From Promethearchaeota archaeon (GTDB lineage Archaea > Asgardarchaeota > Lokiarchaeia > Sigyniarchaeales > SOKP01): a stretch of DNA of 17,879 nucleotides. Shown piece by piece: positions 99 to 16,166 of the stretch (position 1 is the stretch's first letter; every line of letters begins with the position of its first letter). The notes beneath the pieces are model-generated. The model was not told where the DNA came from, did no database searches, and worked only from the letters and a program-made list of their open reading frames with translations. The stretch covers positions 1-17,879 of the forward strand of contig RDOA01000063.1 in the NCBI GenBank assembly GCA_011364925.1. Reading direction: 5' to 3'. Both the position numbers and the translations under genes were made by a program.

Positions 99-1322
99 AT
101 GACTGTAATCGAAGATCAATATAATTGGAATAAATTGGCTGAAAGAGGTTCTGGTTACGAGGAAGTGCGAACTAAATTAAGCGCTTTAGAAGTCAACTGG
201 TACGGTCTACAGAAGGAACAAGTCTTTACCGAAGAAAACGAGTTCACGAAACGGTTTAAACAAGAAGTGAAAACAAAGGTAGACGGGATTTTCGAGTCGA
301 GCGCTCTACCCCAGAAAGACATCGCTTCGATGAAGAGAAAGTTTCACGCAAGAGTTCAAAAAAACTTAGAGTTAGCAGTGCTAAAAAAGGGATTAGCCCA
401 GATAACCTTCGATCAATACCCTTTATACAAGTTTTTCGAAGCCTTTAACACCTTCGTTGACGAAGTGGAGTTTAACGTGTCAAGAGATCAGATTAAGGTT
501 GTAATTAGCGACCCGTCCAGAATTGCCGTCATCAAAGTCGCGTTTAGCAACGATTCTTTTTTGTTTCTTAGGGAAGGAACGGTAAGCGTTAACATTGGGG
601 ATTTGAAGGAGATGCTTAGATGTCAGAGCAAAAGCGAATCTACGGTTACCCTTTTGTTCGCGGAAGAAGGGCTTGAAATGAGCATCACATCAGAGAAAAG
701 AAAGAGAACCATAGTACGAAAGCTTAACGCGATAGATTTCGAGCCCCAAGAGATGCCACTTGATACGCTAAACGCTATCAAGTATCCCTTTGAGTTTGAA
801 ATGACCAAAGACGATTATTTAGATCTCTTAGGTAATTCCGGGAGATATAGCGAAATCTTAGGCATAAAGACGACTCTTGAAAATGTTATCTTCTCGGAAG
901 CGAGCGATAAAGGGAGCGCAGAGATCGAGTACAAAAAAGACGATTTACCCAACCTAACATTTTTAGAAGACGTGTTAGATTTGGAATCGGAGATAAAAGA
1001 AGTCCAACTTGTAGATAAAGAAATTTTTGACGCAAAGCGATGCAAGGGATACTATTCACTTCCTTTTCTAAGACTGATCAAGGAGTTTTGCGCCGTATTG
1101 AATAGTAAAGATGCGATTAAGTTCTCTCTAAAGACTTCACACCCTTTGAAAGCTCAGATAACCTTCAAGAAGCTTACGAACGCAACCATCGTCTATTTCC
1201 TCGCCCCCAGAATGGACGAGGTAGATGAGGACGATTTCGAAGACGAAGAGGATCTTGAACCAACCGAAACAGAATATATGATTGAAAACGATTTTGAGTC
1301 ATTTGACAGCAAAGAAGAGTAA
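99..1322 (+). CDS. pcn: PCNA (DNA sliding clamp) family paralog with ~95-aa N-terminal extension and acidic C-terminal tail
   Basis: PCNA motifs from about residue 99: FVDEVEFNV, ISDPSRIAVI, VSVNIGDLKEML, KGYYSLPFL, HPLKAQI and the terminal YFLAPR. Confidence 0.85.
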   Translation: MTVIEDQYNWNKLAERGSGYEEVRTKLSALEVNWYGLQKEQVFTEENEFTKRFKQEVKTKVDGIFESSALPQKDIASMKRKFHARVQKNLELAVLKKGLAQITFDQYPLYKFFEAFNTFVDEVEFNVSRDQIKVVISDPSRIAVIKVAFSNDSFLFLREGTVSVNIGDLKEMLRCQSKSESTVTLLFAEEGLEMSITSEKRKRTIVRKLNAIDFEPQEMPLDTLNAIKYPFEFEMTKDDYLDLLGNSGRYSEILGIKTTLENVIFSEASDKGSAEIEYKKDDLPNLTFLEDVLDLESEIKEVQLVDKEIFDAKRCKGYYSLPFLRLIKEFCAVLNSKDAIKFSLKTSHPLKAQITFKKLTNATIVYFLAPRMDEVDEDDFEDEEDLEPTETEYMIENDFESFDSKEE

Positions 1323-11274: not shown

Positions 11275-11808
11275 TTATTTTAATGGAACATATTTACTTG
11301 ACCGTGTGGCTCCAATTCCTGGTGAACCATGTTGAACATGTCTTCTAGTTAATGAAAATTCTCCTAAATAATGTGCAATCATCTCAGGTTTAACATCTAC
11401 AGTTTCATAGGATTTTCCATTGTATATTCCGATTTTTAAGCCCACCATTTCGGGAAAAATCAGCATATCCCTAACGTGGGTTCTAGTAAGAATATCTTTA
11501 CCTCTTTTCTTAGCTCTATATGCCCTTCTTAGTCTTTCGAGTAGTTTTTTCTGTCTGGGAGGCAGACCTCTTTTTAAGGATCTCCTTGCTCGTGCTGGAA
11601 GTAATTGGATAAATTCGTCCATGCTCATTTTTTTGAGTTCTTCCAAAGTGTATCCGCGATAGTGAAATTTAAGCCGATCTCTCTCTTTTTCTAAATCTAA
11701 TTCCCCTCTTTCTGCTTCTTCTTCGAGTTCTTCTGGAAATTCTTCTTCTAAGTCTTCCTCTTCGATTTCTTCTTGTTCTTCATTATCTTGTTCTTCATTC
11801 GGAGGCAT
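11275..11808 (-). CDS. rps19: 30S ribosomal protein uS19 with ~45-aa acidic N-terminal extension
   Basis: [43 protein letters not shown]. Confidence 0.97.
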
Positions 11809-12041: not shown

Positions 12042-12716
12042 TTAATGATAATTATTCGGATTGAAAATTCGGGTTATATCGTCTTCGTCGAATTTTCCAC
12101 TCCATCTTTCTTCAATAATTACGAAATCTTTGGGATTTTTATTAGGATTTATTACAGAATGATAAGTCATTTTTGGGCTTAAAAATTCGGTTCCCTTTTC
12201 AACAAAGTAATAAACCTTATGAGCATTTATTATAATTGGATTGCCTTTCAGAATTTTCCAATGCTCACTTCTATATTGGTGAATCTGTATGGATATACCT
12301 AATTCTGGTTTAACAAAGATTAGGTTATGATCGGGATATGTGAATTTTATACTGTACCATTTGTTTAATACATCTATGTATCCATTTGGAACATTATTTA
12401 TCTTGCTAAAATTTTCTGGATCAAATTTTTTTTTTTTAGAATGCTCAAATTTATATGGTTCATATATTATTTCATGGTGAGCGATATTTGTATTATATTT
12501 TACAATTACAATTTTATCCCATTTGTTAAATATCATGTAATAATCTTTTGATTTTATTTTTAAGTTACCCTCTTTTAAGTTTCCCGCGAAAAATGATGTA
12601 CCATTTACTAAAAACATTTTGCTAAGATACTTTGGATCAATTGATATTATTAGTTCATTATCCCCATTTTTTCTGAGGTTTGTACCCCTGTTCGGTTTAA
12701 TGGCTTCTTCTATCAT
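12042..12716 (-). CDS. Cupin protein related to the type II mannose-6-phosphate isomerase C-terminal domain, with an unrecognised N-terminal half
   Basis: ISIQIHQYRSEHW, YHSVINP and GKFDEDDITRI match the SLQxHxHRSEHW / HRLEN / EDDIVR motifs. Confidence 0.75.
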   Translation of the reverse strand: MIEEAIKPNRGTNLRKNGDNELIISIDPKYLSKMFLVNGTSFFAGNLKEGNLKIKSKDYYMIFNKWDKIVIVKYNTNIAHHEIIYEPYKFEHSKKKKFDPENFSKINNVPNGYIDVLNKWYSIKFTYPDHNLIFVKPELGISIQIHQYRSEHWKILKGNPIIINAHKVYYFVEKGTEFLSPKMTYHSVINPNKNPKDFVIIEERWSGKFDEDDITRIFNPNNYH

Positions 12717-12717
12717 T

Positions 12718-13704
12718 TTACTGATATTCTATTGTGTGATTCGCATTATAATCATTGAAACGATCCTCAATTTCACTACGATACGGCATTGAAGCTTGAG
12801 CTCCTTGTCTTGTAATAGCTATGGAGGCCGCTGCAGTAGCGTATATTACCGAAGTGAGTAATTCTTCTCCTTGGCATATTTTACTAGCTAAAACTCCATT
12901 GAAGCAATCTCCTGCACCGACAGTATCAACAGCTGGTATTTCAAAAGCAGGAACTTTTGTAATGCTATCTGTTATCGCATCGTATATAACACAACCTTTT
13001 TTACCAAGCGTAGTTATTATGGTCTTTACTCCTAAATGTGATATATGCTTTGAAGCTTGGATTATTTTTTCATTATCATTTCCTTTTAAATTTTTAAATT
13101 TTAAAAGCGAATGTAATTGTATTAATTCGCCCTCGTTGGGAATTATAATGTCAATTTTACTTAGAATTGAAGGACTAATTGGTTTTAAAGGGGCTGGATT
13201 AAGAATTTTTACGACATTTCCTTGTGAAGCAATCTTATAAATTTCTTCAATAGTCTCAATAGGAATCTCCATTTGAACTACTAAGCATTTAGCATTTCTA
13301 ATGATTTCAGATCTATCGCGAACCTCTTCAGGAGATAACTTAAAATTGGCGCCAGGTGCTACACTAATCATGTTCTCACCTTTCTCGTCGATTAAAATAA
13401 AAGCCACACCGCTTGATTCTAGGGGATCCCTAATAACATACTCTATATTTACCCCTTCCTTGTTTAATTGAGAGACCATATCGTTTCCAAATGTATCCAT
13501 TCCAATCTTCCCAATAAAAATTGTATTAGACCCAGATCTCACGGAGGCTACCGCTTGGTTCGCACCTTTACCTCCCAAGAATTGCCTAAAAACTCCTCCT
13601 GTTACGGTTTCACCTGGTTTTGGGAACCGTCGTGAGTAAATATTCAAATCCATATTACTAGAACCGATAATAAGGGTATAAGGGTCGGGAAGTGGTGTAC
13701 TCAT
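12718..13704 (-). CDS. rbsK: Ribokinase (PfkB family)
   Basis: GSSNMDL, PKPGETV, GGKGANQAVA, LNPAP, PNEGE, DTVGAGDCFNG. Confidence 0.95.
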   Translation of the reverse strand: MSTPLPDPYTLIIGSSNMDLNIYSRRFPKPGETVTGGVFRQFLGGKGANQAVASVRSGSNTIFIGKIGMDTFGNDMVSQLNKEGVNIEYVIRDPLESSGVAFILIDEKGENMISVAPGANFKLSPEEVRDRSEIIRNAKCLVVQMEIPIETIEEIYKIASQGNVVKILNPAPLKPISPSILSKIDIIIPNEGELIQLHSLLKFKNLKGNDNEKIIQASKHISHLGVKTIITTLGKKGCVIYDAITDSITKVPAFEIPAVDTVGAGDCFNGVLASKICQGEELLTSVIYATAAASIAITRQGAQASMPYRSEIEDRFNDYNANHTIEYQ

Positions 13705-13805: not shown

Positions 13806-13894
13806 TAATATAATTTTAAAAGTAATATTAAGCAAAGTAATCTTGCTTGAAATTATAAAAAAAATTATGTCTGAATCTTATAAAGGTGTTCAAT

Positions 13895-14212
13895 ATGGCT
13901 AAAGACAAAATTATTGGAGCAATCGTAATGATCCTAGGCATTCTAATCGCTATTGTTTATACCATGGGAAGCGTTGTAGATTTGTGGTTCAATACTCTCG
14001 GTAATAACCCAAATTGGGATGCCGCCTTACGGTTATTTGGTGTCGATTGGCTCGATTACAGATTGTTTACTGTTCTACCACTCTGGATAATGGTACTCCT
14101 AATTGCGATTATCGCTATCTGGATAGGATATTCTATGCTCACGACCCCAGCACCGGTCCCGCTCGAAGAGTTAGAAGAGGAATTAGCTGCTGAAGAGGAA
14201 TCTGAAGAGTAA
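13895..14212 (+). CDS. Two-TM membrane protein resembling eukaryotic DPM2/PIG-P (105 aa)
   Basis: SD AAGGTG at 13883-13888 favours ATG 13895; DKIIG...YT first helix, LP second helix, WIGYSMLTTP, acidic tail. Confidence 0.6.
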   Translation: MAKDKIIGAIVMILGILIAIVYTMGSVVDLWFNTLGNNPNWDAALRLFGVDWLDYRLFTVLPLWIMVLLIAIIAIWIGYSMLTTPAPVPLEELEEELAAEEESEE

Positions 14213-14266
14213 AAAGAATATTTTTAATTTTTTTATTTTTTTTATTTTACATTTGGTTAAAATATA

Positions 14267-15044: not shown

Positions 15045-16166
15045 TTAAGAATCACCTAAAAAGTAAGCGAATATAGAACCGTTATCATGGCAGCTAATAA
15101 GAAGTTCTAACTCAGAATCGTATTTTAGGTCATTAACACAAGATTTTTTATCAATTTTAACAAGAATATTACCAGATCCCGATTCTATAATTAAAATATT
15201 ACCTTTAGTAGTTCCCACAATAATATATTTCTTCGTAAAAACTTCGATCGGAATATATGTTTCCACATTAACATTTTTAATTTCCCAAATTTTCTCGAAA
15301 TCTGAATTTAGGCAAATAAATTGTGAAGTAAATTCATAATTCTCGATTTTGATATTATCATCGAAATAATCGAATGAGTAAGTGCTTACTAATAGAAATA
15401 GCTTCCCATCATGAAGAAATGATGAACATTTCCAAACAATGTCTTCAAATTGAAGAGTTTTTAAATCTTCGTGTGTGTTTTTATTAAATAAATGAAATTT
15501 TTTATCATCTCCTCCACAAGCTATCAAGATTTCGTTGCCTCTTTTGATATATGAAACGCATCGAACTTTATTGTTAAATCGTTTAAACCAATTTAATTCG
15601 CCCGTTTTTCCCTTAAAACTACGGATAGTTCCATCGTTTCCACAAGCAATTATCTCTAAAGCTAATGGGTTATCTAAATCTTGCCAAATAATAGCATCAC
15701 CGATTCCTTCTTCAAATAGTTGCCCCCATATTAAAGAACCGTCAATTGAGTTCAAGCAACGTATACTTTTATCTATTGAATATGCTATAATTTCTTTAGT
15801 GCCATCAAAATTAACATCTGCTTGTAAAAACCCACTGATAGAGGTTCCAAACTGATGCGACCAAAGAGGAGTTAATTCATAAGACTTAGAACATTTGAAT
15901 GTTCTTAATAATCCATCTAAACCTGCTAACACAACTTCATTTTTATCGTCATGATCAATGTCAAAGATTTTAACTTGCCAAAGAGAGGAATTTTCTGTGA
16001 TTTCTAGTTCATTTATTTTTTTACCAGTTAACGATAATATGAGCAATTTCCCAGAATTAGTGAAGCCAAGAATTTCGTTGTGACCATTGTTATTGAGATC
16101 TCCTATTTCAATCCCAAGTATTGACTCGTTGGAATGGAAATCCCATCGTTGTTCGATAGTATTCAT
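15045..16166 (-). CDS. Beta-propeller protein (FG-GAP/WD40/PQQ-like repeats), no signal peptide
   Basis: Repeats GDLNNNGHNEI, DIDHDDKNEV, DVNFDGTKEI; ~42-aa periodicity with G.L.W blade ends. Confidence 0.75.
   Translation of the reverse strand: MNTIEQRWDFHSNESILGIEIGDLNNNGHNEILGFTNSGKLLILSLTGKKINELEITENSSLWQVKIFDIDHDDKNEVVLAGLDGLLRTFKCSKSYELTPLWSHQFGTSISGFLQADVNFDGTKEIIAYSIDKSIRCLNSIDGSLIWGQLFEEGIGDAIIWQDLDNPLALEIIACGNDGTIRSFKGKTGELNWFKRFNNKVRCVSYIKRGNEILIACGGDDKKFHLFNKNTHEDLKTLQFEDIVWKCSSFLHDGKLFLLVSTYSFDYFDDNIKIENYEFTSQFICLNSDFEKIWEIKNVNVETYIPIEVFTKKYIIVGTTKGNILIIESGSGNILVKIDKKSCVNDLKYDSELELLISCHDNGSIFAYFLGDS

Follow-up and report, generated by a model that had tools for sequence, protein, structure and literature searches.

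The window analyzed here, a stretch of 17,879 nucleotides of contig RDOA01000063.1 from a Promethearchaeota archaeon, carries a small gene, P0001, at 13895-14212 of the forward strand (stop codon included), which encodes a 105 amino acid protein assigned below to the DPM2/PIG-P family of membrane proteins. Translation of 13895-14209 (+) from an ATG start gives 105 residues that match exactly those quoted when this ORF was first proposed from the DNA letters, in what we refer to as the sequence-only reading. A Shine-Dalgarno-like motif, AAGGTG, can be read at 13883-13888 (+), 6 nt 5' of the ATG at 13895. The ORF listing offers an alternative GTG start at 13886; since this GTG lies inside the AAGGTG motif, 13895 is taken as the start of P0001. 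As a single-gene unit, it is flanked upstream by a divergent ribokinase gene and downstream by a convergent class-II glutamine amidotransferase-like (GATase-like) gene. The ribokinase (TIGR02152, 311 bits) is paired on the minus strand (12042-12716 and 12718-13704) with a 224 amino acid protein that contains only the C-terminal cupin of the GMP/PMI-type mannose-6-phosphate isomerases, and the pair is divergent from the DPM2-like gene. Downstream of the stop codon, a T-rich tract (14221-14249, +) is, judging by its sequence, possibly an archaeal terminator of the oligo-T type. The promoter/terminator scan of the locus gave nothing, hairpin terminators included, and an Rfam scan matched no family.

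P0001 is genuinely coding and evolves under strong purifying selection. Five orthologues of equal length, all belonging to its genus, show 81-84% identity at the DNA level but 90-94% at the protein level; the codon changes among them comprise 195 synonymous and 40 non-synonymous changes, and third positions account for 217 of the 277 base changes. The gene is probably essential. Its GC3 is 0.42, whereas 22 of the other 23 ORFs of the window, every ribosomal-protein gene included, lie between 0.18 and 0.34; expression-linked codon choice, mRNA structure or another factor may be the cause of the raised value. ORF 99-1322 (+) alone comes near P0001 in GC3 (0.46). It encodes a 407 amino acid protein, much longer than canonical PCNA, with a weak match to the PCNA N-terminal domain (residues 109-213, E 3.5e-7). 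Elsewhere in the window, ORF 15045-16166 (-) encodes a 373 amino acid beta-propeller protein with FG-GAP, BBS2/BBS7-propeller and ITFG2-like Pfam matches, which may be a propeller of the Asgard "eukaryotic signature" type. The uS19 ORF (11275-11808, -) encodes 177 amino acids with the S19 domain starting at residue 76, as compared with 134-144 amino acids for orthologues in other Asgard families; its extra length reflects either a mis-called start or an N-terminal extension particular to the lineage.

The P0001 protein is predicted to be a two-helix hairpin of N-in/C-in topology. In the AlphaFold2 model, which was built from a 48-sequence alignment and has a mean pLDDT of 85.8, the first helix spans residues 3-37 (pLDDT 86-96) and includes the hydrophobic core of TM helix 1 (approximately residues 6-28; 13910-13978, +), preceded by a conserved K-D-K-x-x-G and ending in Y-T. 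The inter-helix loop (approximately residues 29-56; 13979-14062, +), predicted to be extracellular and containing a short helix at residues 42-48, shows the lowest pLDDT (62-77) and varies in both length and sequence across the archaeal family. TM helix 2 (approximately residues 57-82; 14063-14140, +), modelled as a helix from residue 55 to 83 (pLDDT 95-97), carries P62 and the motif W-I-G-[YW]-[ST]-M. It is followed by a T-T-P-x-P-x-P boundary motif (residues 83-89; 14141-14161, +), which reads TTPAPVP in P0001 against a family consensus of TTPPPxP and coincides with a helical break in the model, and by an acidic C-terminal helix (residues 90-105, LEELEEEL...; 14162-14209, +), modelled at residues 90-104 with pLDDT of about 95 and predicted to be cytoplasmic.

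Across 48 diverse members of the archaeal family, the columns conserved in at least 90% of sequences are G8, P62, W76, I77, G78, T84 and P85. The family consensus runs from the K-D-K-x-x-G start through Y-T (in the majority of members) at the end of helix 1 to TTPPPxP and then an acidic tail, which is found throughout the family. P0001 carries all of these motifs (K-D-K-x-x-G, Y-T, the helix-2 proline, W-I-G-[YW]-[ST]-M-x-T-T-P-x-P and the acidic tail), and the positions singled out by the sequence-only reading (D-x3-G, YT, the helix-2 proline and the WIGYSMLTTP end) coincide with the conserved columns. A search for longer fused forms found approximately 19 natural fusions, paralogues with P0274 among them, in which the hairpin is followed by a Pro/Glu/Thr-rich acidic linker and then a DUF4332/HhH_5 domain, and none in which it is joined to a glycosyltransferase. 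P0273, a further candidate on a 985-nt contig, was discarded as it looks like a read-through or an assembly artefact. With an HhH/DUF4332 domain of nucleic-acid type following the acidic tail, the fusions suggest that the C-terminus of P0001 is cytoplasmic, facing the side on which the GT2 domain acts. It should be noted that many Thermoproteota genomes hold extra matches to the helix-2/TTPPP/acidic-tail half alone, and that the hairpin module seems to have been reused as a membrane anchor.

To survey the family, a profile (alignment A1), which recovers P0001 from the window with E 4.2e-38, was run against Asgard and Thermoproteota samples. The gene is carried by 270 of the 301 sampled Asgard genomes, usually in single copy, and by 85 of the 90 that are of high quality. 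It also occurs in 86 of the 101 sampled Thermoproteota genomes, often with two or more matches and with up to five, so that the family is not specific to Asgard archaea. At least 542 relatives came up in a motif scan of GTDB species genomes, where the best 80 matches to a Bathyarchaeia-type query are almost all from Bathyarchaeia; the earlier impression that shorter WIGYT..TTP relatives exist in other archaea was thus correct. One match from a MAG named "Methanocella sp." at NCBI was rejected as evidence for Euryarchaeota, as this MAG falls in the GTDB phylum of Bathyarchaeia (Thermoproteota); the name is probably a mislabel.

For comparison with the eukaryotic proteins, we used the Pfam models of DPM2 (PF07297; gathering cut-off 27.3 bits) and PIG-P (PF08510; 39.3 bits), with a phage holin hairpin family (28.4 bits) as a gauge of composition noise. 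P0001 shares with DPM2 the build of a small two-TM protein, at 105 amino acids with modelled helices at residues 3-37 and 55-83. Its own scores are below both cut-offs: 21.0 bits against PIG-P (E 3.1e-4), with residues 8-98 aligned to positions 6-85 of the 121-position model, and 10.9 bits against DPM2 (E 0.58), with helix 2 only. Such scores are consistent with an artefact in which the composition of two hydrophobic helices imitates homology, P0001 being unrelated to DPM2 and PIG-P. An unrelated 257 amino acid multi-TM ORF on contig 24, which came up as a second PIG-P match in a six-frame scan of the genome and was rejected as a paralogue, scores practically the same on PIG-P (20.6 bits), and 21 of the 48 diverse family members match the holin family, with E values down to 1.2e-5.

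The family as a whole argues against such an artefact. PIG-P is matched by 28 of the 48 members (best E 2.3e-10) and DPM2 by 18 (best E 1.7e-8), and among ten members scanned individually, four exceed the curated cut-offs. Two of these pass both models, namely P0136 (DPM2, 32.6 bits; PIG-P, 39.8 bits) and P0241 (31.3 and 42.9 bits), while P0222 (29.0 bits) and P0143 (28.8 bits) pass that of DPM2. The passing members align colinearly to nearly the whole models (positions 2-71 of 75 for DPM2 and 3-104 of 121 for PIG-P), and the best holin score in the same ten members, 24.8 bits, is under the holin cut-off. P0001 finds P0136 with phmmer (E 2.4e-11), and hhalign connects the subgroup of P0001 to that of the cut-off-passing members over 94 columns (probability 99.9%, E 8.5e-32). 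P0001 therefore qualifies as a DPM2-family protein by transitivity only, through relatives that pass the cut-off and the hhalign link to them. Moreover, an independent published tree of PF07297 includes archaeal sequences (PMC12872463). We consider the artefact very improbable, and P0001, by these profile comparisons, very likely belongs to an archaeal family that forms part of the DPM2/PIG-P superfamily. The homology claimed by the sequence-only reading thus holds at the level of the family, but not in the scores of P0001 itself.

Structural comparison did not return the DPM2 or PIG-P match that the sequence-only reading had looked to Foldseek for. Fold searches with the AlphaFold2 model (Foldseek against pdb; VIA-align against pdb_via_wide) gave generic helical hairpins only, including ATP-synthase c subunits, Esx proteins and designed bundles, with GtrB and ArnC at chance level. 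Sequence searches of the PDB with P0001 and with the family profile gave no match to DPM2, PIG-P or DPMS, and the family profile had no sequence match to the Pyrococcus Dol-P-Man synthase (5mlz) at E up to 10. These results could be read in favor of the composition artefact; uninformative fold searches are nevertheless expected for P0001, which is a helical hairpin.

DPM2 and PIGP have been described as products of a duplication that took place before LECA within a family inherited from archaea (PMC12872463, Nature 2025). In the supplementary table of that study, PF07297 is given an "Asgard" origin and a duplication, dated to 2.51 Ga, that produced DPM2 and PIGP. The evolutionary link between the archaeal family and the eukaryotic proteins is therefore already published and is not new. 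A protein-language-model atlas also contains Asgard clusters that are automatically named Dol-P-Man regulatory protein or in which some of the members carry DPM2, and our literature search found no paper on the function of the archaeal DPM2/PIG-P-like protein. With high confidence in the homology, we regard the archaeal family as the pre-duplication counterpart of DPM2 and PIG-P, co-orthologous to both.

As to the features shared with DPM2 (PF07297), the archaeal proteins have the small two-TM hairpin, an N-terminal D/K-x-x-G, an aromatic-Thr pair at the end of helix 1, an early proline in helix 2 and an I-x-[YW]-x-M end of helix 2. They differ from it in a longer, variable loop and in the conserved TTPPPxP and acidic C-terminal helix, whereas the C-terminus of eukaryotic DPM2 is a short basic tail. 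With PIG-P/Gpi19 (PF08510), a subunit of the GPI-GlcNAc transferase, they share a two-TM hairpin with a cytoplasmic C-terminal extension. The archaeal family differs from it in predating the split between DPM2 and PIG-P.

To look for functional associations, 99 gene neighbourhoods were compared, comprising 21 diverse Asgard loci and 78 loci, mostly from Bathyarchaeia, found with a Bathyarchaeia-type query. A GT2 gene is present in only one of the 99, so that gene order gives no support for a glycosyltransferase partner. The neighbors that are conserved have housekeeping functions. The uS19 end of the ribosomal-protein operon lies near the gene in 12 of the 21 Asgard loci, and 73 of the 78 other loci have an S-adenosylhomocysteine hydrolase gene immediately upstream in the same orientation.

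This arrangement favors a role outside glycosylation, in which the protein would be a housekeeping membrane anchor or scaffold whose acidic tail tethers another cytoplasmic factor, the hairpin having been recruited only later by eukaryotes into DPMS and GPI-GnT. In addition to the 98 neighbourhoods that lack glycosyltransferase linkage, synteny with ribosomal-protein operons, NAC, AspRS and S-adenosylhomocysteine hydrolase points in this direction, as do the fusions to C-terminal DUF4332/HhH_5, the occurrence of up to five matches per Thermoproteota genome and the GC3 of P0001, which, set against all but one of the other genes, suggests special expression constraints. However, small housekeeping subunits often lack linkage in operons; DPM2 and PIG-P, the only relatives to have been characterised, both serve glycosyltransferases as accessory subunits; and the TM motifs (G8, P62 and WIG) are conserved beyond what hydrophobicity requires, suggesting a specific intramembrane partner. 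We consider the scaffold role somewhat unlikely.

Two other sets of neighbors bear on the nature of a possible sugar substrate. An archaeal GlmM (TIGR03990, 565 bits) is encoded one to three genes away in 6 of the 21 Asgard loci; in two of these six, a GlmS-isomerase-like SIS protein is encoded directly upstream of the gene, and a SIS homologue is nearby in a third. This "phosphomannomutase" neighbor was at first a candidate for a link to mannose, which was dropped for those lineages as the protein is archaeal GlmM and the SIS neighbor is GlmS-like. The GMP/PMI-type cupin gene, in turn, is near the gene in 5 of the 21 Asgard loci, the window included; it is present at each of the five loci from the order to which the window belongs, and the ribokinase gene occurs in the three loci of the window's taxonomic family.

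The GlmM and SIS neighbors would fit a PIG-P-like role, in which P0001 would belong, as a small subunit, not to a Dol-P-Man synthase but to a UDP-GlcNAc-dependent transferase whose acceptor is an inositol lipid or a different lipid, as in a GPI-like synthesis of GlcN-archaetidylinositol. PIG-P is also the best Pfam match of P0001 and of most family members, and the convergent neighbor in the window is the class-II glutamine amidotransferase-like gene. On the other hand, the GlmM linkage is found only where both genes adjoin the uS19 operon and may thus be inherited synteny; it is absent from the 78 mostly Bathyarchaeia loci; and in the taxonomic family of the window the neighbor is the GMP/PMI-type cupin, which points to mannose. 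Furthermore, in the host genome, which is estimated to be 100% complete, no match was found to the PIGA domain (PF08288) at E up to 0.01 or to PIG-C/GPI2 (PF06432) at E up to 1, which sets the archaeal protein apart from PIG-P and leaves a complex resembling the GPI-GlcNAc transferase unrecognisable in this genome. A PIG-P-like role is, in our assessment, quite improbable.

The question of the partner narrows to short DPMS-like GT2 enzymes. The genome contains eight GT2 genes. Two of them lie in tandem on contig 81, within a nucleotide-sugar gene cluster, at 104735-105601 (288 amino acids) and 105841-106812 (323 amino acids). The best PDB match of both is the Pyrococcus Dol-P-Man synthase (PfDPMS, 5mlz), with E values of 2.5e-19 and 3.8e-17, respectively. 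Each has one hydrophobic segment, at about residues 250-272, and is without the four-helix membrane domain of the type-III enzyme; in this build, both resemble yeast type-I Dpm1. A third GT2, a TM-less protein of 238 amino acids (contig 81, 23701-24417), is ArnC/DPMS-like. It is less likely as a partner of P0001, having its own operon with two multi-TM proteins. This operon (contig 81, 21108-25534; L139:1109-5535) encodes, in order, a 354 amino acid multi-TM protein, the TM-less GT2 and a 358 amino acid multi-TM protein, a layout that suggests a three-part lipid-linked glycosylation module of the GtrA/GtrB/GT-C style.

Short DPMS-like enzymes are also found beyond this genome: in five other Asgard and three Bathyarchaeia genomes, the DPMS-like matches lie in frames of 235-330 amino acids, with one exception of 424 amino acids. 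Type-III DPMS is found in some Thermoproteota as well, so that its distribution and that of the hairpin family are not cleanly complementary. Topologically, DPM2 and DPM3 have their counterparts in the two TM-helix dimers of the type-III DPMS of Pyrococcus furiosus (5mlz), whose TMH1 and TMH3 are somewhat similar to human DPM2 (PMC5526996), while the eukaryotic and type-III membrane domains are expected to differ (PMC12992685). The DPMS-like enzymes of the host genome differ from the type-III enzyme in that they lack its four-helix membrane domain. Nor was a homologue of DPM3 found in the genome (best E 0.17), a further difference from DPM2, which associates with DPM3 and DPM1 as a regulatory, stabilizing subunit of the eukaryotic Dol-P-Man synthase and is also a component of the GPI-GlcNAc transferase.

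The sequence-only reading had seen in this gene a candidate link to the eukaryotic Dol-P-Man/GPI machinery. The link is real, but it had been published (PMC12872463), the family extends to Thermoproteota, neither a PIG-A domain nor PIG-C nor DPM3 was found in the genome, and all but one of the gene neighbourhoods are devoid of a GT2 gene.

Parallels for a functional pairing come from eukaryotic systems. The type-I DPMS of yeast is regarded as a DPM1-DPM2 heterodimer (PMC12992685). Yeast Yil102c-A, according to work cited in the same paper (PMC12992685), is a separately encoded DPM2-like micro-protein that acts with a type-I Dpm1 of a single C-terminal TM helix. Its parallel to the archaeal hairpin is a functional analogy, not a sequence-based one. 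Human DPM2 raises DPMS activity, and its exact role is described as unknown (PMC5526996). For eukaryotic Dpm1, a TACK/Asgard ancestor has been proposed (PMC4973528).

By analogy with these systems, we tentatively propose, at slightly less than even confidence, that P0001 assists a short DPMS-like Dol-P-sugar synthase as an accessory subunit. We infer the identity of the partner and the roles of hairpin and tail as follows. P0001 would bind and stabilize a membrane-associated lipid-linked-sugar glycosyltransferase, as DPM2 and PIG-P do, and the best candidate partners in the genome would be the two tandem DPMS-like GT2s on contig 81. GT2 and P0001 would then make up a pair similar to the yeast (type I) DPM1-DPM2 pair, in which the hairpin would sit beside the membrane segment of the enzyme, and the TTPPPxP motif and the acidic helix would contact a cytoplasmic surface. 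It counts against this proposal that the DPMS-like GT2s already have a membrane segment of their own and may therefore need no helper.

A more far-reaching version, which we consider unlikely as a whole, is that TACK and Asgard archaea share a two-component Dol-P-sugar synthase composed of a short DPM1-type GT2 and a single hairpin, in which the TTPPPxP motif and the acidic helix would act as a tether, as DPM3 later did, and the hairpin would be ancestral to both DPM2 and PIG-P. If true, the hairpin would be the ancestral universal helper of the lipid-linked sugar transferases of the ER. Dol-P-Man and GPI-anchor synthesis depend on DPM2 and PIG-P as essential helpers, and a single, strongly conserved archaeal homologue provides a simpler system in which the function of the hairpin may be addressed, and helps to date the assembly of the glycosylation machinery of the ER.
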